Source: Thermoplasmatota archaeon | GTDB lineage: Archaea; Thermoplasmatota; E2; DHVEG-1 | Reading direction: 5' to 3' | NCBI GenBank assembly: GCA_030616985.1 | Contig: JAUWWG010000001.1 | Span: 1-51,633, forward strand | DNA: 51,633 nucleotides | In this document: positions 627-48,676 of the stretch, in pieces | Position numbering within the stretch: the stretch's first letter is position 1 | Layout of the letters: the number at the start of each line of letters is the position of its first letter | Notes under the pieces: model-generated | Told to the model about the DNA's origin: nothing | What the model saw: only the letters and a program-made list of their open reading frames with translations | Database searches by the model: none | Made by a program: the position numbers and the translations under genes

Positions 627-1187
627 CTAATGTTTGTGAAAAATCAATACCCAATCCTGAATCAACTGGTCATCATGCATTAACTGCTTATATGTCTTCA
701 TCGCAAAGTGAAAACCTGATCTTTCTGCCATCTTAATCACCTCATCCAAAGACATCTGCATGTGTTCTTCGTGATGCCGTGGATATAACACTAATGTTCC
801 TTGGTGCTTCAACACGTTATACAATTGAGAAATCAGACTTCTCCGGTTTTCTACTAAATGTAAGACATCAAAAAGCAACACCATATCAAAGGTGGCTGTA
901 TCAAAGGGAAGATGAATATTCTCAGAGCTATCAAAACGTTTAACGTTCTCCAAATCTAATTCATCAGCGGTTTTCATCAGTGTATCCAACGCCGATATAT
1001 CCTTATCAACAGCATACACCCGTCCATCATTTCCCACAACCTTTGCAGCTGGAATGGTATAGGTTCCATGTCGACAGCCAAAATCAAGCACAAAATAATT
1101 TGTATTCATTCCAAGACTTTGAAGAAATGTTATTCCTGAACTGTCAATCCATTGCTCATATTCTGATGGGATTTTGATTTTTTTCAT
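627..1187 (-). CDS. Class I SAM-dependent methyltransferase
   Basis: 186-aa ORF. SAM-binding motif I VLDFGCRHGTY, followed by acidic-loop VYAVDKD and a DMVLLFDVLH motif typical of the Methyltransf_11/25 fold. Confidence 0.85.
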   Translation of the reverse strand: MKKIKIPSEYEQWIDSSGITFLQSLGMNTNYFVLDFGCRHGTYTIPAAKVVGNDGRVYAVDKDISALDTLMKTADELDLENVKRFDSSENIHLPFDTATFDMVLLFDVLHLVENRRSLISQLYNVLKHQGTLVLYPRHHEEHMQMSLDEVIKMAERSGFHFAMKTYKQLMHDDQLIQDWVLIFHKH

Positions 1188-1578
1188 TTTATTGCCTTCA
1201 AATCTACAATCCCAAACCGCCTTTTCAAGAAATGACTATTCAATGCTTACACTTATTTGTAGGATGCAACTTAGAATTTGACATTCTTTCATGCAGTTCC
1301 TTTATTCTTTTTTCTACATGTTTTGCATAGGCATCTGACATTTTACCTTTCCTCAAATCAACAAGTTCAAAACTCTCATCCTATCTTAAACGTTACGATT
1401 GTTTTCTATTTGATACATTCGTGCCGTATAAATTCAGCTATGCAAGAACATATTTATACCAGAAATCATTAATATATTATTGAGTGGGGAGTTTATTTTC
1501 AATTACCAATCGTTCCGCCTTAAAGGAACAAGGTAGATGTCATCCCATCCTTCCCACTCGTTCTTTTCTATCTTCCAT

Positions 1579-1707
1579 TTATGAGGTAATCTTTCTAATT
1601 TCATAATGCTCTGGATGTGGGCCAACATTGCCACTATTGCAATTCGGACATCGACTTATCTCTTCAGCAATCCATTCAAAATGACAATGATTACACAACA
1701 TAAGCAT
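1579..1707 (-). CDS. Small zinc-ribbon protein candidate (42 aa), not in the ORF track
   Basis: Translation by hand gives MLMLCNHCHFEWIAEEISRCPNCNSGNVGPHPEHYEIRKITS. It has two CxxC pairs (CNHC, CPNC). GAGGGC lies ~9 nt upstream and an A/T-rich TATA-like TTATTATAC ~30 nt upstream on the minus strand. Confidence 0.35.
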   Translation of the reverse strand: MLMLCNHCHFEWIAEEISRCPNCNSGNVGPHPEHYEIRKITS

Positions 1708-1762
1708 TCTTATTTGCCCTCAGGACTTTTGTATAATAACAAATGCCTTCTTATAGTGATTA

Positions 1763-2233
1763 TTATGAAAGATATATCCAGAGAAAAACCAATACACCGA
1801 TAACAAGTATGATTGATGCAAGAATCATAGATATTTTTTGTAATTTCTTTTGTTCAGGAGTACCAGGTTCTTGTTTCCATCCACTTTCAATACTGCCGCC
1901 AATACCAGCACCAATTGCCACGCCAATTGCTATGCCAATAGCAATATTATCCAATAATATACCAAAGATAAGACCCATTGGAATTCCAATTCCATATCCA
2001 ATACCCCATCCTGCACCTTTGGGAACTTTACGTTTTTTTTCCACTATTAGTTTTATTGTTAAATGACTCGATGGCCCAAGACTTTTTTCAACCCATCCAT
2101 CCCAATCACCAAAAAATTCAAAATATCCATGCATATCTTTATTTGGTGTAAAAAATTTTCCAATTCGGTCTTTTCCTCTACAATGAAACGCAGATGAAGG
2201 TTCTGAACCTTTTGGGATAAAATTAAATGTCAT
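1763..2233 (-). CDS. Hypothetical membrane protein with a glycine-zipper C-terminal region
   Basis: 156-aa ORF. The C-terminal half is Gly/Ile-rich (GWGIGYGIGIPMGLIFGILL...GIAIGVAIGAGIGG) and ends in a second hydrophobic helix. The reading frame stays open 35 codons upstream of the ATG (see findings). Confidence 0.5.
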   Translation of the reverse strand: MTFNFIPKGSEPSSAFHCRGKDRIGKFFTPNKDMHGYFEFFGDWDGWVEKSLGPSSHLTIKLIVEKKRKVPKGAGWGIGYGIGIPMGLIFGILLDNIAIGIAIGVAIGAGIGGSIESGWKQEPGTPEQKKLQKISMILASIILVIGVLVFLWIYLS

Positions 2234-2331
2234 TTTGTCACCCGTAAATTCTATGCTTATATATTCATTAGAACTATCATATCCTACAATAGTAGGTCCA
2301 ATGACTTCAAGATAATCATAATCATATTTAT

Positions 2332-2682
2332 CTACAAACTAAAGAGATCATCAGAGTTTTTTCCATCAATATCAGAAAACGCATAATCAAAAAGCCAGTT
2401 GTTGTATCTGTCAAGATAGGTTGAAACATCAATATCTGACTGATTGTCATAATACTTTACCCATTCTGACCATACCTTTCGTTGCTCATTCATGAGTAAT
2501 TTCACATCACCTTTATACCGTTTGTATAAATCAACAACAAAAGCAAACAAATCAAAGGAGTCGTCAACACCTTTTTCAAAACCTGAATAAAATTTGTTTT
2601 TCTCAGGAGCATCGTGTTTCATTGATTTGAGAGCATCTTTCTTCATTTTTTGTTTTTTGCTTTTCAGTGGTCCGTATTTCAT
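2332..2682 (-). CDS. Hypothetical protein (116 aa)
   Basis: ORF only. Lys-rich N-terminus and an acidic, aromatic-rich remainder, with no recognisable motif. It may be the upstream part of a disrupted gene together with 1763..2233. Confidence 0.4.
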   Translation of the reverse strand: MKYGPLKSKKQKMKKDALKSMKHDAPEKNKFYSGFEKGVDDSFDLFAFVVDLYKRYKGDVKLLMNEQRKVWSEWVKYYDNQSDIDVSTYLDRYNNWLFDYAFSDIDGKNSDDLFSL

Positions 2683-3115
2683 TATCTTACCCCAATGCCA
2701 ACATTTTGGAAAATCTAAATTTAATCGAAAAATTGTTTCTAATTTATTTTTTGTATCTGTTATAAATAGGCACTATTTTAAATTTCCCCGATTGAAACAT
2801 TCGCGAGAAGAATCATTTTTTCAGATGTAATCAATCATGTCCTATAATTTGATTTACACGTTTTATTATTTTTTCATGATCGTCTATGCCTGTGCCTTCC
2901 TCGATTGCAGTCTCTGGTTTACCACCATATATAAGTTCTACAAGCTTTTTAATTTCGTCGGATTCTATTTGTTCTAAACATGTCCCATCTTCACTCACGT
3001 TTTCACCATGACAGCCAATACTAAATCATTATAAAAATCTATTCTTTTGTTGGTTTTATCGATGACAGCACAAGCATTAATTTTAAGTTGAAAATCCTAA
3101 TTCCTAAAGGCAATC

Positions 3116-4447
3116 TTAAACCCATGTTTCAATGGATTCTCTAAATATTTCTCCAGCCTCTTTAATTACTTTGTCATCCACCGGTGCAAACGAAGCCCTA
3201 GCAACCGCTAAAGGTATTCTTCGAATATAATCGGCCATTCGGAGGTCTCTTCGCAGAGTCGTAGAATAATACTTTTCAACGATCTCATTTACATCATCAA
3301 TGTATTTTCCTACTGTCTTATCTGAAGCAGTTATCTTTGGCTCATAGGTTCTAGACAGCCTCATCCATTGATCATAATAATCATGTTTTTCTTTTATTTC
3401 TCCGCCACCATAAAATTTCTTACGGAAAAGATTTATTCTATCATCCTTGCTAATATTATGTACTTTAACAATAAGTGCACATCTACTTACAAGAAGTGGG
3501 GAGAGCCCGATGTCTGAGAGAGCTTTTTTCCCAAACACCTTTGATCTAGGATTTGCAAATGAGATCATGATAAACTCGCTTACAATGTTTTGATGAAGTT
3601 TTGCGGAATGTACACTACATTTACCATTTGAAAGCAGCTCATAACAGTACTCTATATCGTCTCCCGGAATTTTATCAAATTCGTCAATCAAAACCAGTTT
3701 TTCATGCGAATGTGGCAGTGCACCTAAATCCCCAGTTCCAAGATTACATACAAGTCCAGATCTCGTAGTATTTGCACCGATATTTGTAATGTCGGAGAAT
3801 TGATCACCGATTATCTCCTTTGCCATCGTTTTACTGCTACCTGGCTCCCCAATAATTAAAGAATGAACTGGCTCGCGGAATGTAGAAAACATACTAGTTG
3901 CAATGACTTTTTTCATTATGTCATTGCCATGTATTTCTTGAAAGACATTCTGCCAGAAACCTTTAAAACCTCTCTCTTTTGCAAACTCTATAAGTTCTTC
4001 ATCTGGTAAATATATCCCACGCTTTTCGCGTTCCCCTATCCTTTTCGATTCTATTACTTCCTGAAGGCCCTCTGCTTTAATTATAACCTTACTAAAAGCT
4101 TGTGAATTTCGGGTGAGTTTCAAGAGGTTATCATCAGTTTTTAAGGATGCATTACCCCACCCTGCCGCATAGACATCCAATGCATTTAAAACTGATTTGA
4201 TAACTGCCCGATCTGTTCTTTTAACTTCCACTTCAATAAGATCTTCATCTACTATTCTTACATCTGTTATATTTTCGTTTGCCAGAATGTTTCGTGCTCT
4301 TTGTATAAACATATTACCCTTACTATTACCCATTCCCAGTGAAGTAACGGACATTATCGCAATTTGTTCTAGCTTTGTTATTCCCATGCTTTCTAATTTT
4401 TTCCTATCAGAAGGGATAACTCCCAATAAACTTAGATCGTCTTCCAT
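3116..4447 (-). CDS. MCM-family AAA+ ATPase with an N-terminal helix-hairpin-helix domain (lacks the canonical MCM N-terminal OB/Zn domain)
   Basis: 443 aa. Walker A IIGEPGSSKT; Walker B LVLIDEFDKI (MCM-type IDEFDK); sensor-1-like MISFANP; Arg-finger-like LLVSRCALI (compare MCM LLSRFDL). The N-terminus LGVIPSDRKKLESMGITKLEQIAIMS resembles the RadA-type HhH. Confidence 0.75.
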   Translation of the reverse strand: MEDDLSLLGVIPSDRKKLESMGITKLEQIAIMSVTSLGMGNSKGNMFIQRARNILANENITDVRIVDEDLIEVEVKRTDRAVIKSVLNALDVYAAGWGNASLKTDDNLLKLTRNSQAFSKVIIKAEGLQEVIESKRIGEREKRGIYLPDEELIEFAKERGFKGFWQNVFQEIHGNDIMKKVIATSMFSTFREPVHSLIIGEPGSSKTMAKEIIGDQFSDITNIGANTTRSGLVCNLGTGDLGALPHSHEKLVLIDEFDKIPGDDIEYCYELLSNGKCSVHSAKLHQNIVSEFIMISFANPRSKVFGKKALSDIGLSPLLVSRCALIVKVHNISKDDRINLFRKKFYGGGEIKEKHDYYDQWMRLSRTYEPKITASDKTVGKYIDDVNEIVEKYYSTTLRRDLRMADYIRRIPLAVARASFAPVDDKVIKEAGEIFRESIETWV

Positions 4448-4693
4448 AACTTAACACGCGACCAAGGGTTATCCTATCTTACGATTAAAACTTTGTGTTA
4501 ACAAAATAAGCGGCGATTTTCCAAAAAAACATGGTTACTTTCATTTATCATTGTCCTCGAAAAAAAGCAAGTTTAATGGTTTTGTAAAAAACAGAATTAA
4601 TGCTAAAATTTGACAGATGATGCATATTTTATAAAATACTAAAAATATTATATACCTTCATACATATGTATAAATTTGTGGAGAATGCGCAAA

Positions 4694-6565
4694 ATGAAAA
4701 AAATATGTAAGAAAAAATTGTTGATGAAAATTAAGAATCTTAAAGGAATCTGGTTTCATATTATAGGCATTGCCTGTTTAATTTGGTTTTTAATAAGAGT
4801 TGTACCCGCGCCTCATAGATTCCAGTATCCTTGTCAGCAAATTTCCATTCCTATTGCATTAGGATATATTGCTTTTTGGAGTATCTTATTTCATGGGCTT
4901 TTGAGATGGATACGAAAAGTGAAATTACGAACTTCGGCAGTCTTACCAGCAATTTCAGTCGTTTTTATCATAATTTTCACAGTTACGGGAATAGTATTTG
5001 CCGATAATTACTTCAATTATGGCACTTCATCAGAACCATGGGACCCAATACCTAAAGCCCCCATTGGAACCCCTCAGGGCGTTAACCCTGGAAGAGTCGT
5101 ATGGATATGGAACCCAGATGCTACAGAGTCAAATTTGAATGGATATTGGTGGAAAACAGAAAATAATAATCAAATGGTTATCGACCAGATGTTTTCCTCA
5201 GGGGTGCAGGGTTTGACAGGAACAGAAGATGACCATACTGCTTGGAGTAGTTTATTCAAATATTTTAATCAGGTTCATGGTTATGGTGAAGCAGACTATC
5301 AAACTGGTGAAAAGATCGCGATCAAAATTAACCTCAATAACTGTGGAAGCCCCATTGATTACATAAATGGATATGTGAAAAAAGATAATGACCGAGATGC
5401 AAGCCCCTATGTCGTAAAAACACTCCTTAGACAACTTGTCAATAGTGTAGGAGTTGAACAGGATGATATCACAGTATATGATGCATCTCGACAGATAGGG
5501 AACTGGTTTTATGATCGCGTTGCTGATGAGTTTCCTGATATCCATTATGTTGACGTTGAAGGGGGTGCTGATGGAAGAGAACAGGCACAATCAAGTTCAG
5601 AAAAAATCTATTTTCAGGATGGGACCATTCGAACATTGCCTAGATGTGTTGTCGATGCCGATTATCTTATCAATATGCCCTTGTTGAAAAAACACCCCAT
5701 TAACAATGGCATCACATTGTCTGGGAAAAATATGTTTGGTACGTTTATTGAACCTGTCCTAGTTCTCCATCCTTACCATGAATCCGGACAAAACATGGGA
5801 AATCCAGCACCTCAAACTGATCTTTTTGCACATAAGCACATTGGTAAAAAAACTCTTCTTTTCATTGGAGACGGAACATTTGGAACCTTGCAAGATCATC
5901 GTACGATTAGTAAATTTGACATGTATCCGTTTAACGATGACTGGTCTAACAGCTTATTTTTCTCACAGGATCCAGTGGCCCTTGATTCTGTGATGTACGA
6001 CTTCCTCCACACCGAAGGACCATGCCCCAATGAAGGTTCTCAAAACTACATACATCAGGCAGCAGAACCACCAATGGACACATATGATCCAGAAAATGAC
6101 GGAGAATTTTTATCAGAAAGTCTTGGAGTGCATGAACATTGGGACACAAATGTTTCCATTTTTTCAGCTGATCGATATTTGGGCCCAGATAATAATGGCA
6201 TTGATTTTGTTGCCGTTGGAGTGGAATACGTACACCCATCAGTTGTTATTACTCAACCTAGTGAGAATAAGTTTTATTTGAACGGAAACGAACAATCATT
6301 TAAGATACTCTGGAGATATGTTTATTCACTTCCAATAACTTTGGTCATTGGAAACATCACGGTGAAAGCACAAGTTAACAATTTAACAGAGGTAGACCAA
6401 ATGAAATTTTATATGGATGGGCAACTGCAACATACAGATGAAGAAGTCCCTTATGAATGGGAGTGGGATCAACCTTCATTTTCAAGACATTTACTAAACA
6501 TCACTGCATCTGTAAACGGAGAAGAAATACTACATGCCCAACGTATTGTCTGGAAACTTTTCTGA
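4694..6565 (+). CDS. Membrane-anchored DUF362-like protein with a C-terminal Ig-like domain
   Basis: The ORF track opens at TTG 4676. ATG 4694 lies ~10 nt after GGAG and is preferred (ATG 4685 also possible). N-terminal TM helices; KIAIKINLNN and DPVALDSVMYDFL resemble DUF362 signatures. Confidence 0.65.
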   Translation: MKKICKKKLLMKIKNLKGIWFHIIGIACLIWFLIRVVPAPHRFQYPCQQISIPIALGYIAFWSILFHGLLRWIRKVKLRTSAVLPAISVVFIIIFTVTGIVFADNYFNYGTSSEPWDPIPKAPIGTPQGVNPGRVVWIWNPDATESNLNGYWWKTENNNQMVIDQMFSSGVQGLTGTEDDHTAWSSLFKYFNQVHGYGEADYQTGEKIAIKINLNNCGSPIDYINGYVKKDNDRDASPYVVKTLLRQLVNSVGVEQDDITVYDASRQIGNWFYDRVADEFPDIHYVDVEGGADGREQAQSSSEKIYFQDGTIRTLPRCVVDADYLINMPLLKKHPINNGITLSGKNMFGTFIEPVLVLHPYHESGQNMGNPAPQTDLFAHKHIGKKTLLFIGDGTFGTLQDHRTISKFDMYPFNDDWSNSLFFSQDPVALDSVMYDFLHTEGPCPNEGSQNYIHQAAEPPMDTYDPENDGEFLSESLGVHEHWDTNVSIFSADRYLGPDNNGIDFVAVGVEYVHPSVVITQPSENKFYLNGNEQSFKILWRYVYSLPITLVIGNITVKAQVNNLTEVDQMKFYMDGQLQHTDEEVPYEWEWDQPSFSRHLLNITASVNGEEILHAQRIVWKLF

Positions 6566-6662
6566 TTATTACACTTTCCTCTGAGATACTGTGTAAATCA
6601 TATAGCAAAATCAGGTAGTCTTAAAGTACCTTAAACCATACATTAAACGGCCTAAAAAGAAA

Positions 6663-7934
6663 ATGGATGAAAATAAGAAGAAAGCAATAATAGTTTCACT
6701 TTCCGATGACGTTTCTGAGATAGAACAGTTAGCTGATTCCCTGAACCACTGTATCGTTGAAACGTTCATCCAGCATAGGGAACTACCTGATGTCAATAGT
6801 TATGTTGGTTTTGGCAAGGTTGAGGAAATAAAGGAATTTATCGATAATTATGACGAAGATGTCGATTTGATTATTGTCGATGGTGAGTTGAAGCCCTCAC
6901 AGTGGTTCACCCTTGAAAAAAGATTAAATGTAGAAGTATATGATCGAGTGAGGCTTATTTTAGCAATATTTAAAGAGAGGGCAGACAGAAAAGAGGCAAG
7001 ACTCCAGGTTAAATTGGCTGAACTCCAGTATGAAAAGCCATTTGTGCGTGAACTTATTCATCGTGCACGAAGTGGTGAACATCCTGGCCTTATGGCTGGT
7101 GGAGAGTACCAAGTTGACGATTACTTTGAGATGATTAAAAAACAAATAAAAAAAATAAGAGAGAATCTGGGAAAAATCCGTGATGAAAGAGAGGTGCGTA
7201 GAAGACATAGACATACTAGTGGTTTTTATCTGATCTCACTAGCAGGATATACAAATGCTGGTAAAAGTAGTCTTTTGAATATATTGTCCGGTGAAGAGGT
7301 AAAGGTTGAAGGGAAGCTTTTTTCCACACTTTCTACAACCACACGTAAGATATATAGCAAAAATTTACCGATTTTACTTACAGACACGGTTGGTTTTATT
7401 CAAAATCTCCCTGCCGAGATTATTGATGCATTTCACTCTACTCTTGAGGAGATAGAAGTCGCGGATGTTATTCTTCTGGTTGCAGATGCAAGCGAAGAAA
7501 TTGAGATTGTTGAAAGGAAACTTAAAACATCCTTGGATGAGCTAGTTGGAATAGGTGTGACCTCACCTGTTATCATCGTTCTGAATAAGATTGATTTGCC
7601 CTCCAAGGGAGATCTTGACAAAATAACAGAACGCCTACAAAAATTAGGGTTAGCGGATAACAGAAAAATAATTCTGATTTCTGTAAAAAACAGGGAAAAT
7701 ATAGATTCATTGCTGAACGCGATCCACGAAGTACTGCCCCAGGTGGCTAAAATCAAAATAAGAATGCCAATTAACGAAAAAACACAGTCTTTTATATCTT
7801 GGATTTATGAAAAAGCACATGTTTCTGAGATTTCATACGAAGATTATGTAACGCTTTTTGTTGAATGCAATATAAAAATAAGAGACAAGATAATTTCTAG
7901 ATGCCGGGATCTTAAGGGATTTGTTATTGACTGA
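6663..7934 (+). CDS. hflX: GTPase HflX
   Basis: 423 aa. G1 GYTNAGKSSLLN, G3 DTVGF, G4 NKID, preceded by the HflX-type N-terminal and helical linker domains (LQVKLAELQYEKP). Confidence 0.9.
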   Translation: MDENKKKAIIVSLSDDVSEIEQLADSLNHCIVETFIQHRELPDVNSYVGFGKVEEIKEFIDNYDEDVDLIIVDGELKPSQWFTLEKRLNVEVYDRVRLILAIFKERADRKEARLQVKLAELQYEKPFVRELIHRARSGEHPGLMAGGEYQVDDYFEMIKKQIKKIRENLGKIRDEREVRRRHRHTSGFYLISLAGYTNAGKSSLLNILSGEEVKVEGKLFSTLSTTTRKIYSKNLPILLTDTVGFIQNLPAEIIDAFHSTLEEIEVADVILLVADASEEIEIVERKLKTSLDELVGIGVTSPVIIVLNKIDLPSKGDLDKITERLQKLGLADNRKIILISVKNRENIDSLLNAIHEVLPQVAKIKIRMPINEKTQSFISWIYEKAHVSEISYEDYVTLFVECNIKIRDKIISRCRDLKGFVID

Positions 7935-9329: not shown

Positions 9330-9629
9330 AAAACATTTTATGCAAAATGTAGAATTGGTTTGAGATTAATCTTCAAGATTATTCAGAATGATTATTTGAA
9401 ACCCAAGTCATGTCAGCAAAAAGTGCTGTTATGAAAATCAGATTAACTAGCATAATGGCTGCTGGCCCATCTAATTTTTATTTCTGTTAATTTCTTTTCC
9501 AGTCTAAACCATAAGCATAGGCGACATTTTCACATCCTGCCACTTTTCCAAAAAACCTTTAAATACACTGACTGACAAAATCTGCCATGTTGGATGTTTT
9601 CACGCTAATATCTAACGTGGAATGGTAGG

Positions 9630-10649
9630 ATGAGGAGAAAGACATATAAAATAACAGTATTGCTCGCAATATTCGTACTTGCAGAAATAAACATTATAGC
9701 AACCATTCATGCAGAAAACATACCTCTAGAAAACAATCTCAAACAAAGTATAATAGTAAGTAAAAACAGCGATGGAGACTACACAACCATTCAAGAAGCA
9801 GTCGACAATGCACCAGAAGGATCAATAGTATACGTTAAAAAAGGATCCTATAGTGAAATAATCAACATAAAAAAAGAACTCAGTCTAATAGGAGAGGATA
9901 AAACTAACACCGTAATAAATCCCATCTCAGAAAAAAACAAATATGCAATCCGTCTTGGGGCTCCAGGAAGTATAATTAGAAATTTTAGCATTACGAATGG
10001 AGCCCCTGGCCTCTACACAACAGGTATCCGCATATCGGCATCAAAAACAGAAATACATAACTGTAACATATATGACACTCCTGTGGGCATTGCCTCATGG
10101 AGCTCAGATGGAATCATAGACAATTGTAAATTCTGGGGTTGTGAGGATGAAGGAATAGCACTTATAGGAAATAGTCTTTCTAGCTGCAACAGAAATAAAA
10201 TCACAAACTGCATATTTTATGAAAATTGCGATGGAATAGAACTACAATATTCATCAAATAACACCATCAGCAATTGTGAGTTCTACGAAAACACACACAC
10301 AGGAATAGATGCCATAGCGTCATCAAACAACAATAATACAATATCTAACTGTAAGATATATAATAACGAGGTCCATGGGATATACCTCTCAGCATCATCT
10401 GACAACAAAATACTTGATTGTTCAATATTTAAAAACAATGACGGAAACGTAATAATGAATGAGTATTCACACAATAACGAAATAAAAACAAGTGTTGATT
10501 CAGATCTAAGCAGCAGTAAAACAAGTAGAATATTAGCAGAGATTATCCAAACATACTGTGAGTCCAACAAAGAAATCTCTAAAAGAAGCAGCATTAAGAA
10601 TTTTTTTGATATCATATTAAATTTAATGCAGATTTTAACAAAATTTTGA
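9630..10649 (+). CDS. Secreted right-handed parallel beta-helix (PbH1/NosD-like) repeat protein
   Basis: Signal peptide VLLAIFVLAEINIIATIHA. N-terminal GDYTTIQEAVDNAPEGSIVYVKKGSY, then ~22-24-aa repeats of the type ITNCIFYEN / ISNCEFYEN / ISNCKIYNN / ILDCSIFKN. Confidence 0.75.
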   Translation: MRRKTYKITVLLAIFVLAEINIIATIHAENIPLENNLKQSIIVSKNSDGDYTTIQEAVDNAPEGSIVYVKKGSYSEIINIKKELSLIGEDKTNTVINPISEKNKYAIRLGAPGSIIRNFSITNGAPGLYTTGIRISASKTEIHNCNIYDTPVGIASWSSDGIIDNCKFWGCEDEGIALIGNSLSSCNRNKITNCIFYENCDGIELQYSSNNTISNCEFYENTHTGIDAIASSNNNNTISNCKIYNNEVHGIYLSASSDNKILDCSIFKNNDGNVIMNEYSHNNEIKTSVDSDLSSSKTSRILAEIIQTYCESNKEISKRSSIKNFFDIILNLMQILTKF

Positions 10650-20001: not shown

Positions 20002-20229
20002 CTATGGTTCGAGATATTCTTTCCCCAATTCAATATCATCAACTATGTTCTGCAGTTTTTTCACAGCTTCAGCTTTTTTTATGATTTCTTCCATATGATT
20101 TTGCTGATATTCTCTTATAGCACGCCTAATAAATTCAGATCGATTGGAAAACTCCCCACTTCTCAAAAACATATCCATGATCTGAATATCCTGCATCGAA
20201 AGCCTAAGAGTTAGCCTGGTATCTTCCAT
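20002..20229 (-). CDS. Ribbon-helix-helix (CopG/NikR-type) DNA-binding protein
   Basis: 75 aa. N-terminal beta-strand RLTLRLS followed by FSNRSEFIRRAIREY, the typical RHH helix pair. Confidence 0.7.
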   Translation of the reverse strand: MEDTRLTLRLSMQDIQIMDMFLRSGEFSNRSEFIRRAIREYQQNHMEEIIKKAEAVKKLQNIVDDIELGKEYLEP

Positions 20230-26964: not shown

Positions 26965-28800
26965 ATGTCTAAAAAACAAATTATGAAGAATGAGGATCTT
27001 GTTTCTTTGATTGATAATTTTCCTGGCGGTATGGTTGTAGCTGATTTAGAGGGTAAAATACTGGCTGCTAATGTTACTCTTGGAAGGATTTTTAATTTGT
27101 CACGTGAGAAACTTATTGGTACTTCAGGTTTTTCATATTTGGAGAAAGCTGTTGGCAAACATCGTGGAAACATAATGGAAAGCATTGTCAGGGATAAAAA
27201 AACTGTTGAAATTGTTGATTATGAAAGGGGACATTGGTGGAAAGCAATATTCGTTCCAAAAATTAATTCCTCTAACAATGTGGTTGGATTTTTCATATAT
27301 ATTAATGATATTACAACTGAAATGAAAAAAGAAGAGCGTAAATTTATCAATCAAGAAGAATACTATATATCTCTGATTGAGAATTCGACGGATTTAATCA
27401 CTGTTGTTGATAAAACTGGAAAAATACTTTATGAAAGCCCACCATTAGAAAAAATGTTGGGATATACAATTTCTGAAAGATTAGGTAAAAAAACTTTTGA
27501 AAATATTCATCCAGATGATGTAACTAGGGTTAAACAATATTTTAAAGAAGTCATTTCTCAACCAGGTTTAACAAATAAACTGACGTACAGGGTTAAAGAT
27601 AAGAAGGGTATTTATCATTATTTTGAATCTGTTGGTAATAACCAAATTCATAATCCACTTATCAATGGTTTGATTATTAATTCTCGTGATATTACGGAAC
27701 GACAGAAAGGTAGAGAGAGAATTTCGAAACAGAAACGTTTTCTTGATAATCTTGTAAATAGTGCCGGTGAGATTATTTTTACTGTTAACGAGGATTATAA
27801 GGTGAGTTTGTGGAATGATGCTGCGGAGCGAAACACTGGTATTTCTAAAACAAAGATTGTTGGTAAGAAACTACGTAGTTTAAATCTGTTTGAGAATATA
27901 TCGGAGTTTCATGAGTATCTTAACCATGTTTTTGCTGGTAAAGATGTTTTTCTAAATCAACTTGTTGTAAAGAGTAATGTTGGCGGTAAGCGTTTATGGT
28001 CTATATCTCCTTCAATGGTGAAATCTAATAATGTGATTTCTGATGTGGTATTTATCTGTAAGGATATTACATTTAAGGATGAGATTCACGGACGACTTAT
28101 TCCTGGTAGAGGTTATCTTGTGAGTGAGGTTTCTGCTGATCCATTGTTTGATGTTTTTAAAGGGTTGTTGCATAGTGGTTGGAATGGATTATGTATCACT
28201 CGAAATCTATCTGACGTTGCTCCTGATTATTTTAAAGATCTGCAATCAACGATGTTGATGTTTTCTTCGTATGGTTCTGGTGAGGAGGTTGTTTCAAGTC
28301 TTGATGAATTGTTTGATACTATTGAAGTGTTTGTAAAAGAGACAAAAAATGCTGCTATGTGTTTGAATCGAGTGGATTATCTTATCAGTCGGTTTGGGTT
28401 TGACAGGGTTTTAGATTTTTTGTACCGAGTGAATGATCTTATGAGAATGAAGCAGGGTTTGTTTTTATTACGGGTGAATAAGACGTTGTTTTCTAGTGAA
28501 CAGGTTTGTTTTTTGCAGGAGGAGTTCAGTATGTTGCCTTCTCAGCAGATACAGGATGTGTCTCTTGAGGATGTAATGTATAATTTATTAGGTTTTATTT
28601 TTAAGGAGAATGAGAAGAATAGTCTTGTCTCTCAAAGGAATATCTGCAATCATTTTGGGATTGCTAAAGTGACTGCTCAGAAACGAATTGAGAATTTGTT
28701 GGAGAAGAGGCTTATTATCTCTCGGAAAAGTGGTCGTTCGAAGTTTTTGCATGTGACTGATAAGGGGGAAGAGTTGTTGCATCGAAGGAAAACAATTTAA
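26965..28800 (+). CDS. Multi-PAS sensor with DUF835-like domain and C-terminal winged-helix DNA-binding domain
   Basis: GGAGGG SD ~7 nt upstream. It has three PAS-like repeats (e.g. LIENSTDLITVVDKTGKILYESP...HPDD). The DUF835-like block is GRGYLVSEVSADPLFDVFKGLL...GLCITRN...LLRVNKTLF. The C-terminal HTH is ICNHFGIAKVTAQKRIENLLEKRLI. Confidence 0.8.
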   Translation: MSKKQIMKNEDLVSLIDNFPGGMVVADLEGKILAANVTLGRIFNLSREKLIGTSGFSYLEKAVGKHRGNIMESIVRDKKTVEIVDYERGHWWKAIFVPKINSSNNVVGFFIYINDITTEMKKEERKFINQEEYYISLIENSTDLITVVDKTGKILYESPPLEKMLGYTISERLGKKTFENIHPDDVTRVKQYFKEVISQPGLTNKLTYRVKDKKGIYHYFESVGNNQIHNPLINGLIINSRDITERQKGRERISKQKRFLDNLVNSAGEIIFTVNEDYKVSLWNDAAERNTGISKTKIVGKKLRSLNLFENISEFHEYLNHVFAGKDVFLNQLVVKSNVGGKRLWSISPSMVKSNNVISDVVFICKDITFKDEIHGRLIPGRGYLVSEVSADPLFDVFKGLLHSGWNGLCITRNLSDVAPDYFKDLQSTMLMFSSYGSGEEVVSSLDELFDTIEVFVKETKNAAMCLNRVDYLISRFGFDRVLDFLYRVNDLMRMKQGLFLLRVNKTLFSSEQVCFLQEEFSMLPSQQIQDVSLEDVMYNLLGFIFKENEKNSLVSQRNICNHFGIAKVTAQKRIENLLEKRLIISRKSGRSKFLHVTDKGEELLHRRKTI

Positions 28801-29047: not shown

Positions 29048-29467
29048 CTAGTCTCCCCATCTTATCTTTATCCATGACTCCATGAATCTCTCCGTAAGCT
29101 CTGGTCGTGCATATACTATGTCTGTACTAGTAACAATTCCGACTACTGCATCATCAGATACAACAGGAAGTTTTTTTATTTTATATTTCTTCATTATTTC
29201 TAATGCCTGTTCTAGTTTTTTTAGCGGATGAATTGTTTTAATATCAGAAGACATAATCTCTTTTATTTTTGTTTTTTTCGGGTCTTTGCAAAGACATACG
29301 GCTTTTTCAATAAGGTCACGCTCTGTTACTATGCCTACACATCGTTCTTTATCGGTTACAATCAGACAACCAACCTTTTCATCTCGATATTTGATAAAAG
29401 CATCAAAAATTGTGTCATTGGAATCTATGGTGACTACTTCTTTAGTCATAATTTCTTGTACAAGCAT
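29048..29467 (-). CDS. CBS-pair domain protein
   Basis: 139 aa. Two CBS motifs (VQEIMTKEVVTID...VGIVTERDLI; IKEIMSSDIKTIHP...VGIVTSTDIV). Confidence 0.85.
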   Translation of the reverse strand: MLVQEIMTKEVVTIDSNDTIFDAFIKYRDEKVGCLIVTDKERCVGIVTERDLIEKAVCLCKDPKKTKIKEIMSSDIKTIHPLKKLEQALEIMKKYKIKKLPVVSDDAVVGIVTSTDIVYARPELTERFMESWIKIRWGD

Positions 29468-29543
29468 ATTATCATCTCTCTGTCCTATAAAGTTAAAACA
29501 GAAATGAAATATAAATATTTTAAACTACCCGATCAGCCTATAA

Positions 29544-29930
29544 CTATTGTTTTTTCAAAATTTTATCAATTCTCGTCCCTAAATTCTTTATATCAAAAGG
29601 TTTTTCAATGTAATCAGTAGATGCCATCTTTCCAAATCCCTTGCTATATGGATCTGTTTGTACCGTTAGAAATACTACAGGAATCTCCCTCCATTTTGGT
29701 TTTTCTTTTAATTTTGCAAATACGTTCCACCCATCCATTTCGGGCATCATAATATCTAGTAGAATCAGATCAGGTATCTGACCGTTTTTTAATAGCTCAA
29801 AACATTTATGTCCACTTTCAGCACCTATGACTTTATACTTTTCTGAGAAATTTTCTAATCCGTATTTGATAGAAAAGAGTATATCAGGTTCGTCATCCAC
29901 AATCATGATTTTCTTCATAATTCTTTTCAC
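29544..29930 (-). CDS. Stand-alone response-regulator receiver domain protein
   Basis: 128 aa. IMIVDDEPD, phospho-acceptor context DLILLDIMMPEMDG, and conserved Lys in YIEKPF. Confidence 0.85.
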   Translation of the reverse strand: MKRIMKKIMIVDDEPDILFSIKYGLENFSEKYKVIGAESGHKCFELLKNGQIPDLILLDIMMPEMDGWNVFAKLKEKPKWREIPVVFLTVQTDPYSKGFGKMASTDYIEKPFDIKNLGTRIDKILKKQ

Positions 29931-29966
29931 CTCCTACTATATCTCTTCAATCTATTAGTTATTCTC

Positions 29967-30188
29967 CTATTCAATTTCAAAACAGTCAAGGATTCTTTTT
30001 GCTTTTTCCATCGCTTCTTTTGGTCTCATTCCCTCTTCCGTATATTCCAAAAATAGATCATGTAGCTCCTTCTTGTATTCATCTGATTTTTCATTTTTTC
30101 TGTAAGTAAAAAAGTAGCATGATATATCCTGTATCCATTCAGGATCGTTTCCCTTTTTACCCAGTAAAAATTTCTTTTCCATCTTCAT
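29967..30188 (-). CDS. Hypothetical small protein (73 aa)
   Basis: ORF only. The ATG lies ~22 nt downstream of a TATA box (near-leaderless), and it is the first gene behind conserved-element promoter copy 1. Confidence 0.5.
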   Translation of the reverse strand: MKMEKKFLLGKKGNDPEWIQDISCYFFTYRKNEKSDEYKKELHDLFLEYTEEGMRPKEAMEKAKRILDCFEIE

Positions 30189-30210
30189 ATGTTATACTCT
30201 GTTACAAATA

Positions 30211-30244
30211 CTATATAAAATATCTGTGACAAAATGTCAAAATG
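30211..30244 (-). promoter_or_regulatory. TATA box plus conserved 19-nt upstream element (copy 1)
   Basis: Plus strand reads CTATATAAAA-TATCT-GTGACAAAATGTCAAAATG. On the minus strand this is element, 5 nt, TTTTATATAG, ~22 nt, ATG of 29967..30188. Confidence 0.6.
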
Positions 30245-30285
30245 AAAAAATGTTTAACCAATGATGAGAAGGGCAGAACAGATAG

Positions 30286-30522
30286 TTATTTTTCTTTTAT
30301 TGGTGGTCTCACTAGCAACCAGTAAATCCATGCAAACGGGATGAACCATGAAACAATTGTCCATATGCCTGGATGTGATTCTCCACGCTTACTGGCATCA
30401 AAATATACATAGATTGGCATTACACACCATAATATAACTGTAATAATAGTAATTTCTCCAATAAACATCATAGTCAGCGATATATGATTTAACGTTCTAG
30501 TTATAAACAGATTGTTATACAA
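30286..30522 (-). CDS. Small membrane protein, PLD-N-terminal-domain-like (78 aa)
   Basis: Two TM helices. FDASKRGES...WTIVSWFIPFAWIYWLLVRP resembles the short PLDc_N/cardiolipin-synthase-N-terminal membrane domain pattern. Confidence 0.5.
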   Translation of the reverse strand: MYNNLFITRTLNHISLTMMFIGEITIITVILWCVMPIYVYFDASKRGESHPGIWTIVSWFIPFAWIYWLLVRPPIKEK

Positions 30523-30616
30523 CTATTGTCAAGAATCATTACAGTTCTTACAAGCTAATGTCATTAAATTTGCACACAAAGATTCTCAGAGATTCGCAAG
30601 TAAATCATCTTTATCT

Positions 30617-31279
30617 CTACATGTCAACGATCCTTTGTTTACTTGAGATGGTGCTGATTTTGCGATCTTTATCATGCAGATGCTGGATCCTAGCAGTAGA
30701 AATCGCATTCTTTACTGCAAGTATTATCCTTAATATCCATTCGACCAGTGTGATAAGAATAATAAACTGAATACATAAGTTAAAGAATTCGGGTAGTAAA
30801 TATATCTTGTTGATTATTTCTTCAAAACTGAAATATGTTGGAGTAACTAAGAATAAACCCAACAATGCAAATGGGAGCATTTTTGCCACATCTTTTGAAA
30901 GATTTCTACTATAATACGCCGTGATTCTAATGGCAACGATTACTGCAAATGATGTCGAAAGAACAGCCAGTATTTCATAGTCCCGAGTCAAGAAAAGCAT
31001 CATCAAGGAAAATCCCAAGAAGAAAAGAAACGCAATAAAAGGAAATACAAAAAAATATTTCAGGAATCCAACTACTTTTGGATGAGATACAGAATGAATT
31101 GTAAGACAATCTCTCCGAGCAATAAAACGATAAAAATGCCATATCACAATCGAATAAATTGCAATTGATATTATCAGATAGAATATGGGTAAAAAAACTG
31201 ATGGATCACCACTTAAAATGCTCTTAAGTGAAAAGGTTGAGGTTAAATCTGAAAAATTTTCAAACGCCATTTTTTCCAC
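30617..31279 (-). CDS. Hypothetical polytopic membrane protein (220 aa)
   Basis: GGAGTGG SD upstream and ~6 hydrophobic segments, with no recognisable family motif. Confidence 0.6.
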   Translation of the reverse strand: MEKMAFENFSDLTSTFSLKSILSGDPSVFLPIFYLIISIAIYSIVIWHFYRFIARRDCLTIHSVSHPKVVGFLKYFFVFPFIAFLFFLGFSLMMLFLTRDYEILAVLSTSFAVIVAIRITAYYSRNLSKDVAKMLPFALLGLFLVTPTYFSFEEIINKIYLLPEFFNLCIQFIILITLVEWILRIILAVKNAISTARIQHLHDKDRKISTISSKQRIVDM

Positions 31280-31338
31280 TCCTGCTTTAAAATTATATCT
31301 TGCTTTATGCGAGGTGCTCTAAATCTCCTTAAAAAAAT

Positions 31339-31473
31339 TTATTTTTCTAACAACCCATTCCAAAAGGAAAATAATTCTTTGTTCAGATCTGTCTTCCACT
31401 GCATAAAATCAAAATCACCATCAGGCACATCCCGTTCATTGTTCCTGAATTTTACCGCCTCAGTATCTAACAT
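31339..31473 (-). CDS. Small ORF candidate (44 aa), not in the ORF track
   Basis: Hand translation gives MLDTEAVKFRNNERDVPDGDFDFMQWKTDLNKELFSFWNGLLEK. It is the first ORF of any length behind conserved-element promoter copy 2 and ends 60 nt before the membrane-protein gene. The RBS is weak. Confidence 0.25.
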   Translation of the reverse strand: MLDTEAVKFRNNERDVPDGDFDFMQWKTDLNKELFSFWNGLLEK

Positions 31474-31542
31474 TGTCTTTCTTCCATCCTTCAATCTTAC
31501 CACCTACTCCATATTGAGATATGATAGCATGTGTCAATATAA

Positions 31543-31576
31543 GTATATAATACTATCGTGGCAAAATGCCAAAATG
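31543..31576 (-). promoter_or_regulatory. TATA box plus conserved 19-nt upstream element (copy 2)
   Basis: Plus strand reads GTATATAATA-CTATC-GTGGCAAAATGCCAAAATG, with the same order and the same 5-nt spacer as copies 1 and 3. Confidence 0.55.
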
Positions 31577-31711
31577 GAAAAACACATTCTTTGAACCATA
31601 TCTATTGTTAAAAGTATAACATGAAATCAATCCAAAAAACATCCTTTTAACATATTAGTAGAGCAATTTCAATTTGAAAAACGAAGGGTCTAGCTTGGGA
31701 GGAAAAACAAT

Positions 31712-32868: not shown

Positions 32869-32941
32869 TGCCGCGGGAGGGACTTGAACCCCCGGCATCA
32901 CGGTCTTCAGCCGTGCACTCTCCCAACTGAGTTACCGCGGC
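32869..32941 (-). tRNA. tRNA-Phe (GAA)
   Basis: The reverse complement folds as a 73-nt cloverleaf: GCCGCGG-TA-ACTC-AGTTGGGA-GAGT-G-CACGG-CTGAAGA-CCGTG-ATGCC-GGGGG-TTCAAGT-CCCTC-CCGCGGC-A. Anticodon GAA; no encoded CCA. The region is visibly GC-rich against the AT-rich background. Confidence 0.9.
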
Positions 32942-32967: not shown

Positions 32968-33288
32968 TCACTCAATGGTTTTTATAATTTCCTCGGTAAC
33001 AACAGTAATATCACTTAATGTTTTTTTAAGTGATGCCATTAATTCTGACACTGCATCTGTAGTTATTGCTCCCCTAGGAGATGGCTCAATAAGTCCATCC
33101 TGCTCCAATATTCTTAGTGAGTATCTCACCATATGCTGAGGATAATCAGTAAGTTCAGATAATTTTATTATGCCCATAGGCTGGTTATCTTGTAATGTCT
33201 TGAGTACATGTATATGCCTCTTGAGTATATCAAACTCAGTCTCTATAACACTTGTAAGAACACTTCGTTCTTTCTTTACATTTTTCAT
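32968..33288 (-). CDS. Winged-helix transcriptional regulator (106 aa)
   Basis: ILKRHIHVLKTLQDNQPMGIIKLSELTDYPQHMVRYSLRILEQDGLIEPSPRG has the helix-turn-helix-wing layout of small archaeal wHTH regulators. Confidence 0.65.
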   Translation of the reverse strand: MKNVKKERSVLTSVIETEFDILKRHIHVLKTLQDNQPMGIIKLSELTDYPQHMVRYSLRILEQDGLIEPSPRGAITTDAVSELMASLKKTLSDITVVTEEIIKTIE

Positions 33289-47473: not shown

Positions 47474-48177
47474 TTTTATTTTCTCCTTATATTCTTCTTG
47501 GGAAAAATTTACTTCCCCCTTACAATCTCATCAGTTTTATCCATTCTACATATTTTATTTTAGCTGTTTATGAGTTAAATCATCTCATAATAGGCCAAAT
47601 TACTATTATTCATCCATTTATATATTTTTCGTAATAGTAGATTTTCTATATGAACAGCCATATTCCCCCATCTTCATCCATCTCACGTCTATAATAACGT
47701 CCATTTATTATCTCATCATTATAAGGAAACTTTATATAAGTTTATCGATATTTTACTTATATTCTTTATTTATATTTTTGTGATATTTATAATATATGTT
47801 TTATATGTGATATGTGCAACAACGCATGGTTTCTAGACGATTTTTATGATTGTAGCTCTTGTATTATTGTAAACCACAACTTTTACTTCAGCCACATCGT
47901 ATATTCAACTAACACACCATAAACACAGTGCTCATAACATACTAACATCTTAAAAAAAAACTAAATGGACTAGAATGAAAAGAAAATTAAAATGAAAAAA
48001 AATAGGTCTAAAAATCATTTTTATTTCCAATCCAAATTCACATGGACAAGAAGTATATATTTTGATAAATGAACTTATCACACATGCTTTTTCAAAACTA
48101 CATCTGGTTTCCATTAAAACTATACTAACAAACAAGAAAAACATAAGAAAAAAAATAGACTTTTAATGATAATGTTA

Positions 48178-48408
48178 TCAGTCAAAATCTGTTCCTAGAT
48201 CGTAGCCACAATACGGACATTCATTTCCATCGTCCAGGGCTTGATTACAGTTAGGGCATACGCTCTCAGAGCTAAAATCTTGGTTTTCAGCTTCGATAGA
48301 ACACCCACATTTTGGGCACACATAGGTAGGGGGCAAACTATCGGACGAAAGATGCATTTTCTCACCGCAATTTGGACAGACCCATTTTTCTTCCAGTTCC
48401 GTTATCAT
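48178..48408 (-). CDS. Multi-CxxC zinc-ribbon protein (76 aa from ATG 48408; 83 aa if TTG 48429 is used)
   Basis: CPNC, CPKC, CPNC, CPYC pairs. It lies behind conserved-element promoter copy 3. Confidence 0.6.
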   Translation of the reverse strand: MITELEEKWVCPNCGEKMHLSSDSLPPTYVCPKCGCSIEAENQDFSSESVCPNCNQALDDGNECPYCGYDLGTDFD

Positions 48409-48465
48409 TTCCACATATATCCGCTCCAATTTTATTACAAAGCATTTTATTGTCTACTGCCTATT

Positions 48466-48499
48466 CTATTTAAATCTAGTGTGGCAAAATGTCAAAATG
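48466..48499 (-). promoter_or_regulatory. TATA box plus conserved 19-nt upstream element (copy 3)
   Basis: Plus strand reads CTATTTAAAT-CTAGT-GTGGCAAAATGTCAAAATG. It sits in the divergent region between the zinc-ribbon gene and the DUF3160-like gene. Confidence 0.55.
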
Positions 48500-48676
48500 A
48501 AAATATTTCCTTACGCTCCTATTATGAAGGCAGGTTTCAGATTGTATACACCATCCAACACATATTCTAAATGTTTGACATGCAACTTCATCCCACTTGT
48601 ATTCGGCTTTTCCCAAACGTTTTAAACAACTATTTATACAAAACCAATTATAACAAAGGACAGAGGTTTGGTTTTA

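Follow-up and report, generated by a model that had tools for sequence, protein, structure and literature searches.

The promoter-associated element

Considered here is a 51,633-nt stretch of DNA from a Thermoplasmatota archaeon (positions 1 to 51,633 of contig JAUWWG010000001.1, assembly GCA_030616985.1), referred to in its entirety as 'the window', and particularly a 19-nt element that an original prediction had placed at three positions within it, just ahead of TATA boxes. Those copies are indeed present. Each is exact and, as read on the plus strand, they are GTGACAAAATGTCAAAATG at 30226-30244 (site 1), GTGGCAAAATGCCAAAATG at 31558-31576 (site 2), and GTGGCAAAATGTCAAAATG at 48481-48499 (site 3). 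Allowing up to three mismatches there are four matches in the window, versus a mean of 0.10 upon shuffling, with 0 of 100 shuffles reaching four. The fourth match, a three-mismatch one, is found at 9525-9543.

Read instead on the minus strand, all three copies display the same order of parts: a T-run, then CATTTTG-N-CATTTTG-N-CAC, a 6-nt spacer, an 8-bp TATA box, and lastly a minus-strand gene. The direct repeat CATTTTG-N-CATTTTG that had previously been pointed out is thus a correct reading, though with a further N-CAC to be added. More fully, the arrangement is TTTTTY-CATTTTGNCATTTTGNCAC, followed by 6 nt resembling a B recognition element (BRE), and then by a box of the TTTATATA type, which in the window is TTTATATA, ATTATATA or TTTAAATA. 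A pyrimidine-purine step occurs about 21 nt further on, just ahead of the gene. The separation of element and TATA box is the same at every site, i.e., 5 nt as had been claimed, if counting is to the 10-mer then taken as the box, or 6 nt to the 8-mer (TTTATATA/TTTAAATA). The element itself reads as a head-to-tail repeat of 8-bp period, (CATTTTGA)x2 plus CAC, and this period runs on, in degenerate form, into the upstream T-run.

Table 1. Promoter modules of the window and the genes which they head (PWM, position weight matrix score)
Feature	Positions	Strand	Details
Site 1 upstream element	30226..30250	-	T-run 30245-30250 plus CATTTTGACATTTTGTCAC 30244-30226; exact match; PWM 59.0 vs <=-15 in shuffles
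Site 1 core promoter	30186..30225	-	Spacer AGATAT 30225-30220; TATA TTTATATA 30219-30212; class-specific GTAACAGAG/TATAACA region
Site 1 predicted start	A 30190; ATG 30188	-	2-nt leader, effectively leaderless; start inferred from geometry
Site 1 transcription unit	29048..30188	-	p73 29967-30188; receiver-only 29544-29930; CBS-pair 29048-29467; open reading frames, Pfam
Site 2 upstream element	31558..31582	-	TTTTTC plus CATTTTGGCATTTTGCCAC; exact match; PWM 55.2
Site 2 core promoter	31518..31557	-	Spacer GATAGT; TATA ATTATATA 31551-31544; TTGACACA box, TATCAT; predicted start 31522
Site 2 transcription unit	30286..31503	-	p54 (54 aa) 31339-31503; 220-aa membrane protein 30617-31279; 78-aa membrane protein 30286-30522; open reading frames
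Site 3 upstream element	48481..48505	-	TATTTT plus CATTTTGACATTTTGCCAC; exact match; PWM 59.4
Site 3 core promoter	48441..48480	-	Spacer ACTAGA; TATA TTTAAATA 48474-48467; predicted start 48445
Site 3 target, 83-aa double zinc-ribbon protein	48178..48429	-	Pfam Zn_ribbon_3 and DZR
Possible fourth, degenerate member	9525..9590	+	CATTTTCACATCCTGCCAC, one extra 8-nt unit, TTTAAATA 9558-9565, CTGACAAAA, GCCATG

Sites 1 and 2 head the genes that had been assigned to them, with open reading frames (ORFs) and Pfam in agreement. The first protein of the site 1 unit, p73, is a 73-aa helical protein with 44 homologues, all of them unnamed. Its AlphaFold model consists of four helices, at a predicted local distance difference test score (pLDDT) of 67; comparison with the PDB gave no fold match at E < 3, and the model says nothing on function. 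Genes for p73 and the receiver protein are again found as a pair in L015, L237 and L104 (L numbers here designate loci in other genomes and metagenomes). Proteins of the site 2 unit have no Pfam match, and orthologues of this unit are seen in L015, L028, L221 and L219. At site 3, the zinc-ribbon protein likely starts at GTG 48414 or instead at ATG 48408.

Occurrence in other genomes

Two scans were employed. One covered one genome per prokaryotic species using the pattern CATTTTGNCATTTTGNCAC, with both variable bases free and no TATA condition, and provided at least 116 loci. The other covered metagenomes, additionally requiring A/T at the TATA position, and provided at least 120 further loci. 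The matches listed from these scans, once flanks of more than 70% identity had been collapsed and obvious non-class hits removed, represent at least 81 independent promoters ('class promoters'), spanning Thermoplasmatota metagenome-assembled genomes (MAGs) along with unlabelled metagenome contigs. The 17 'invariant' bases of the element were fixed by this search design, while other conserved positions are independent observations. The scan lacking a TATA condition, moreover, gave the same picture as that possessing one.

About 40 of the matches listed are from MAGs labelled Thermoplasmatota, Thermoplasmata or Thermoplasmatales, all with the same spacer and TATA box. Within 282,639 bp of Thermoplasmatota loci there are, among the matches listed, 43 exact copies, and 43/43 have an AT-rich 8-mer at the same offset. 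Every one of these exact copies is promoter-positioned, the placement for which a check in wider genomes had been suggested. In those same 282,639 bp, copies that have 1-3 mismatches and a TATA box in the right place number only about six. None of the bacterial matches listed in the genome scan, by contrast, displays an AT-rich 8-mer at the class offset. Many of those bacterial hits share CATTTTGCCATTTTGACACCTCC, which is the reverse complement of GGAGGTGTCAAAATGGCAAAATG, i.e., the Shine-Dalgarno sequence and start of a conserved Clostridia gene, and which is unrelated to the archaeal element (L033, L036, L040, L050, L051, L073, L074, L080, L084, L093, L097-L099, and others).

Contigs that carry class promoters are archaeal as judged from what they encode: TFB, RadA, SMC, MCM, Cdc6, proteasome and Alba. 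Near-identical versions of such contigs have been assigned to a Thermoplasmatales MAG (L003) and to two 'Ignavibacteriaceae' MAGs (L052/L064), with L004 assigned to an 'Actinomycetota' MAG. The Ignavibacteriaceae and Actinomycetota placements probably are binning errors in public MAGs. L095 (MUGE01000157) belongs to MAG M11B2D, which was published as Thermoprofundales (MBG-D) (PMC6461988). We infer that the host of the window belongs to Thermoprofundales as well, its closest relatives carrying the label 'Thermoplasmatota archaeon' only. No paper containing the element sequence, in either orientation, was found, and the literature searched describes no cis-regulatory element or regulon for Thermoprofundales; we know of none.

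Conservation can also be followed gene by gene, as had been proposed. Homologues of all three window targets carry the element at the same TATA distance, either exactly or with 1-3 mismatches, and this is so at protein identities of 42-63% (p73), 36-52% (p54) and 59-78% (zinc-ribbon). The DNA around the element in those orthologous loci is unalignable. Upstream flanks diverge, save for the T-run, while the approximately 40 nt downstream (spacer, TATA box, pre-start and start) hold class-specific conserved positions. The earlier statement that flanking sequence is not conserved thus stands for the upstream side, the T-run excepted, but not for those approximately 40 nt downstream.

A regulatory site that is found at a fixed position upstream of TATA boxes, and which thereby defines a regulon, had been suggested from the window, and both the 81 promoters and the conservation upstream of orthologues agree with this. 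That the element indeed would be such a site, and one that is bound by a protein, we regard as highly probable. The regulon was also described as small, which it is not, because the same module is present at 81 independent promoters and is conserved upstream of orthologues of the three window genes. As a rough figure, estimated from secondary sites in ascertained loci, there may be one site per 40-60 kb, i.e., tens per genome. The element is found on at least five contigs of MAG CSMAG_2770 and at least four of CAZXHI. Sites also cluster: two are 1.3 kb apart in the window, three fall within 2.2 kb in L011, and there are two each in L012, L019 and L104. These clusters have the form of 'islands' in which each class promoter drives one very small gene (L011 at about 3369, 5166 and 5528; L012 at 6749 and 7550).

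Quite different accounts of the element would be chance repetition, a remnant of mobile DNA such as a miniature inverted-repeat transposable element (MITE), or a promoter of the bacterial sigma-70 type, and all of these we consider exceedingly improbable. The resemblance to a sigma-70 promoter consists of a distal TTGACA that is 17 nt ahead of TATATA in the consensus, and a scan for such promoters scores site 2 (31536-31564, minus strand) at 10/12. Hits of this kind are not enriched, however (20 vs 21.3 expected), and the host is an archaeon. Conserved bases of the start site, as well as leaderless ATGs, are 22 nt past the TATA box, which represents archaeal geometry. The TTGACA-N17-TATATA geometry is judged to be coincidence in an archaeal host. 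A MITE had been dismissed from the outset, rightly so: there are no terminal repeats, spacers and flanks differ, conservation is limited to functional positions, and the placement at promoters is invariable. Viral contigs, when scanned, supplied two chance hits only, neither of them class-like. Recent copying, furthermore, is excluded because spacers and flanks are not conserved and the target genes are diverse, rather than being copies of one sequence.

Consensus and core promoter

Over the 81 promoters, the 5' part of the consensus is a T-run (71-93% T over six positions) followed by CATTTTG-A-CATTTTG-A-CAC, with the first of the two variable bases being A in 89% and the second in 73%. The 3' part is R a T A n n - TTTA(t/a)ATA - n n a T t A n T G a c A a A - n3 - T A a C A y G, with a second TA.CA about 15 nt after the start-site box. 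The TATA 8-mer begins exactly 6 nt past the element in 73/81 promoters. Within the spacer, and relative to the TATA box, position -6 is a purine in 85-89% of promoters and position -3 is A in 85-87%, these being the two strongest BRE determinants (PMC5512572). As it is the spacer that holds the BRE determinants, the element ends where the BRE begins and is itself no BRE. The suggestion that it could be an extended BRE for an alternative TFB therefore can be set aside.

The predicted start of transcription is 36 nt after the element, with a conserved C-A step at 35/36 taken as -1/+1. This puts the TATA box at -29 to -22, which is normal archaeal geometry. The remainder of the module, on the same numbering, is the T-run at -60 to -55, the two 8-bp units plus CAC (CATTTTGA-CATTTTGA-CAC) at -54 to -36, the BRE at -35 to -30 ahead of TTTATATA, a class-specific TGACAaA box at -14 to -8, and TAaCAyG at the start. 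Several targets have their ATG at +1 to +3 and thus are leaderless by this predicted start, e.g., p73 (...TATAACATATG in the window and ...TATAACATG in L015). A hairpin in the 5' leader, such as ATGCTATttgATAGCAT in L119, was considered as well, and was found to be inconsistent across about ten loci checked by eye.

The repeat appears as a pair. That is, 138 of 145 occurrences of TTTTGNCAC plus a TATA box carry the full second unit, and therefore both units are needed; single-unit versions beside a TATA box are essentially absent. A single unit, TTTTTTCCATTTTGACAC, is seen in L143 at 7627-7660, followed after 5 nt by ATTATGCATA, a poor TATA box, with half-sites otherwise very rare. In a p73 paralogue (L237), ATGACATAATGACAC is found at the same position. 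As this version keeps TGACA cores and their 8-bp spacing, with T-tracts lost, it points to TGACA as the contacted core.

A different reading of the same bases is as an inverted repeat, TGRCA-AAA-TGYCA, which would be a palindromic operator or a hairpin with compensatory changes. Indeed, the two variable positions of the element had been said to change together so as to preserve this repeat, and at sites 1 and 2 they are complementary. Site 3 (G...T on the plus strand) breaks that pattern, however, and the non-palindromic A,A is the combination in 55/81 promoters, with just 10/81 complementary versus 12.8 expected under independence. Similarly, the site 1 variable base is T in the window versus A in L015 and L028, with such changes among orthologues uncompensated. 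Nor is there an Rfam match at any site, the sole Rfam hit in the window being a tRNA gene at 32869-32941. The palindrome and its compensatory changes are thus refuted, and we would assign this reading hardly any probability.

The question of what distinguishes class promoters downstream of the element was addressed using control promoters from the same loci, i.e., element-free TTTAWATA sequences for which an ORF of 110 aa or more is found within 70 nt. These numbered 51 (enlarged from 24), a small and noisy set, and were compared with 61 class promoters. The A of the BRE is common to both. TTTATATA is preferred over TTTAAATA in 42/61 class promoters versus 16/51 controls (Fisher p = 1.3e-4). 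Bases past the TATA box also differ, for class versus control, as A at +12 (92% vs 49%), purine at +13 (98% vs 39%), G at +9 (64% vs 24%), C at +21 (61% vs 27%), and G at +24 (66% vs 27%), such that there are about ten differing positions between TATA box and start. Downstream boxes (TGACA, TAACA) resemble the upstream core, and are far less conserved.

A position weight matrix (PWM) built solely from the 40 nt past the element scores four window positions at 19-24 bits, with all others at 11.7 or less. Recovery of the three known sites in this manner is partly circular because their orthologues were training members, while the fourth is independent. That fourth position, the promoter at 9525-9590, has the top score in the window, at 24.2, and it heads a beta-helix/NosD-like protein (9630-10649, Pfam). 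Here there may be a fourth member, decayed or variant, that drives a secreted beta-helix protein.

Findings such as these raise the issue of whether what is seen is a distinct promoter class whose reader would be a specialised variant of a basal factor, be it a TFB/TBP paralogue or an accessory factor, similar to alternative-sigma promoters, with the tandem repeat just one of several class-specific core elements. The different TATA flavour, the approximately ten differing positions, and the ability of a downstream-only PWM to single out class promoters in the window all are in line with this, as too is the TFB gene that itself carries the element in one MAG (L114). In haloarchaea, general transcription factors provide a precedent by directing promoter choice (PMC2396416). 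Set against these points, TFB genes in five loci are 64-74% identical, as would be the case for orthologues of one gene, and no second paralogue was found there. The 19-mer, in addition, lies beyond the position expected for TFB contacts with the BRE, and the control set, as noted, is limited. A specialised basal-factor variant strikes us as quite unlikely.

Target genes

Targets are diverse genes. Among the 72 promoters that could be scored, the first ORF is of 100 aa or less at 44, with a median of 74 aa, though these small ORFs may include false calls. An HGSNAT/DUF1624-type membrane acyltransferase is a target in 14 loci, always directly downstream. A 67-75-aa protein lacking a Pfam match is the target at 9-10 promoters. 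Also recurrent are the p73 and p54 families, small zinc-ribbon proteins (two families), a 'KEYE' small-protein family, a J-domain membrane protein, a GT4 glycosyltransferase with UDP-glucose-dehydrogenase-like genes, large pilin-signal or secreted proteins, and receiver-only proteins.

A TFB gene is a target once, in MAG CSMAG_2770 (L114, 771-1784), with TFB in four other loci not directly downstream of the element. The gene for the 67-75-aa protein, recognizable by 'KIVTKEPGE', is often preceded by a tiny upstream ORF of 26-48 aa, motif DNWLYYIxxLQ, as seen in L014, L043, L060, L075, L132 and L226. In L060, a proteasome alpha-subunit gene follows it. The 69-aa 'KIVTKEPGE' protein has neither a Pfam match nor a PDB sequence match.

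Two further observations concern the window. At 30245-30290 (minus strand), the final gene of the site 2 operon ends in a stop codon about 30 nt ahead of the T6 run of site 1, and the conserved T-run could double as an oligo-T terminator which insulates the regulated promoter. Beyond the zinc-ribbon gene of site 3 there is an unusually long and very AT-rich intergenic stretch of about 700 nt (47474-48177) with no convincing ORF, separating this gene from one for a 2014-aa DUF11 surface protein, after which come PKD/VWA surface proteins.

Candidate regulators

Three local genes had been put forward as possible regulators, and none of them turns up repeatedly with the element in other genomes. 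The winged helix-turn-helix (HTH) gene at 32968-33288 (ArsR/CggR_N-like) is near a class promoter in just one further lineage, L183, and is divergent there; in the window, the above-noted tRNA gene (minus strand) is directly downstream of it. The ribbon-helix-helix (RHH) gene at 20002-20229 has a homologue in one other locus only, L221, at 93% identity, while the PAS-DUF835-HTH gene at 26965-28800 is not a recurrent neighbour of the element in other loci. For the 2-CBS protein of the site 1 unit, likewise, no other locus shows a homologue close to the element. Two further candidates were examined and rejected, a tandem Lrp/AsnC-like family being confined to one orthologous locus and an Lrp-like HTH protein being found downstream of the element in L104 only.

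The most recurrent neighbours instead are receiver-only genes, which as counted over the loci examined are within 4 kb of the element in 17 loci, with 88% of pairs less than 70% identical. At three or more independent promoters, namely those of the window, L019 and L120, the element has such a gene directly downstream. Histidine kinases are present in eight loci. In L143, the region immediately upstream of a class promoter (8061) encodes, at 1055-7432, a 910-aa sensor rich in PAS domains, a histidine kinase of 783 aa with Cache/HAMP domains, and two receiver-only proteins in tandem. Similar arrangements are seen in L151 and L155. Kinase and receiver genes of the L143 type may be the signalling input of the regulon.

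Comparison with known systems

The element belongs to no known family with which it was compared, since sequence, unit spacing, targets and host all differ. By analogy, it would work like known archaeal upstream activating sequences (UASs), while its repeat architecture is reminiscent of tandem RHH operators. What is distinctive is that it is nearly invariant over at least 81 promoters, that a class-specific core promoter is coupled to it, and that very small proteins dominate among its targets.

Closest in layout is the GvpE UAS, which also is of about 20 nt, consists of two 8-nt portions in direct orientation, and is directly upstream of the BRE, with any change in distance to the BRE abolishing activation (PMC2241852). 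GvpE portions are 4 nt apart, however, whereas those of the present element adjoin each other, with a period of 8 bp and unrelated sequence. GvpE furthermore controls two divergent gvp promoters (PMC2241852) rather than tens of promoters, and no gvp genes are among the targets here. The EarA sites of the Methanococcus maripaludis fla promoter similarly are short repeated units directly upstream of a BRE, with a good TATA box and an activator required (PMC5512572), but there they are four 6-bp units at one operon versus two 8-bp units at many promoters, with sequence and targets differing as well. A CBS-only activator, HhpR of Pyrococcus yayanosii, binds an AT-rich UAS (PMC11705074), one that, as here, is upstream of BRE and TATA box, and the site 1 operon also encodes a CBS-only protein. 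HhpR, though, has four CBS domains and recognises general TA-richness, while the window protein is 2-CBS.

Single or palindromic sites with weak BRE/TATA elements are the situation with TFB-RF1 and Ptr2, versus direct repeats and a near-consensus core promoter here. The sites of those two regulators (reportedly the subjects of Ochs et al. 2012 and Ouhammouch et al. 2003, respectively, which PMC5512572 cites) are said to abut, or to be just upstream of, BRE/TATA and to serve in TFB or TBP recruitment. RHH repressors bind contiguous repeats, i.e., the 8-bp met-boxes of MetJ or the 7-bp heptads of omega-repressor, doing so as cooperative adjacent dimers and needing at least two units. The contiguous 7-8 bp repeats and the need for at least two of them are the likeness. 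As differences, those repressors are bacterial or plasmid ones, met-boxes are internally palindromic, and no RHH protein is linked to the element here.

Proposed function

We take the 19-mer to be the upstream half of a composite archaeal promoter module, defining a regulon that would be shared in Thermoprofundales-like Thermoplasmatota. Most likely it is a putative binding site of a lineage-specific transcription factor. On the evidence of sequence and position, the element is predicted, with moderate confidence, to act mainly as an activator site. Activation is favoured because the site directly adjoins the BRE on its upstream side, at a rigid distance, because a position just ahead of the BRE is typical for the binding of archaeal activators (PMC5512572), and because it is distance to the BRE that is critical to the GvpE UAS.

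Mechanistically, a sequence-specific DNA-binding protein would occupy the two TGACA-centred units head to tail, presumably as two protomers or as two dimers, 8 bp apart. This would hold the factor directly against TFB on the BRE, where it could recruit or stabilise TFB/TBP, which would be activation. The weaker TGACA/TAACA-like boxes past the TATA box might provide the same factor with a second, repressive binding mode. Input perhaps is a two-component-type signal, as suggested by adjacent histidine-kinase and receiver genes.

Several considerations weigh against this reading. First and foremost, the class-specific bases between TATA box and start are not explained by a simple upstream activator. 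Second, the core promoter looks strong, with a near-consensus TATA box and the key BRE positions, whereas archaeal activators usually are paired with weak BRE or TATA elements (PMC5512572); such a promoter would seem to be no less suited to repression or to constitutive enhancement. Third, no DNA-binding family is consistently linked to the element among the loci examined. Fourth, the enrichment of receiver genes is modest and only suggestive. Lastly, the true degeneracy of the element is visible only in about eight secondary or variant sites.

The second of these points leads to a repressor, or instead a dual-function operator. That is, a factor on both the tandem units and the TGACA/TAACA-like boxes between TATA box and start would occlude TFB/RNA polymerase, or bridge the TATA box, and thereby keep a strong promoter off until there is a signal. 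The near-consensus core (TTTATATA, purine at -6, A at -3), an element abutting the BRE, and class-specific T(G/A)ACA-like boxes at about -14, -4 and +12 all can be read in this manner. Known archaeal regulators, in addition, activate or repress according to the location of their site (summarised in PMC5512572). The best-conserved part of the module is wholly upstream of the BRE, however, where archaeal repressor sites are unusual, and the downstream boxes are much weaker, with G at 64% and C at 46-47% at core positions. Repression as the main role is thus a serious but rather unlikely alternative to activation.

Significance

The element provides a sharply defined and easily searchable marker for a predicted co-regulated gene set, one in which proteins of 100 aa or less form the majority, accompanied by a membrane acyltransferase, a membrane protein with a J domain, receiver-only proteins and, in a single MAG, TFB. 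Made testable by it are a joint response in metatranscriptomes, a protein that binds a BRE-abutting 8-bp repeat, and the route by which archaeal receiver-only regulators reach promoters. It also is a compact candidate regulated-promoter part for archaeal genetics. The order concerned, Thermoprofundales (MBG-D), is among the most widespread of sediment archaea and has no cultured representative (PMC6461988).

A bolder possibility, which we advance tentatively and think unlikely, is that these promoters could constitute a complete and self-contained alternative class, with tandem repeats upstream, a TATA flavour of their own, and likewise their own sequence ahead of and at the start site. A dedicated factor would read them, coupling receiver proteins that are without DNA-binding domains (as part of a two-component system of histidine kinase and receiver-only proteins) to the basal machinery. 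If true, then a cosmopolitan order of sediment archaea would possess an equivalent of the regulons governed by alternative sigma factors or response regulators, and through it an 'island' of tiny proteins would be switched on.

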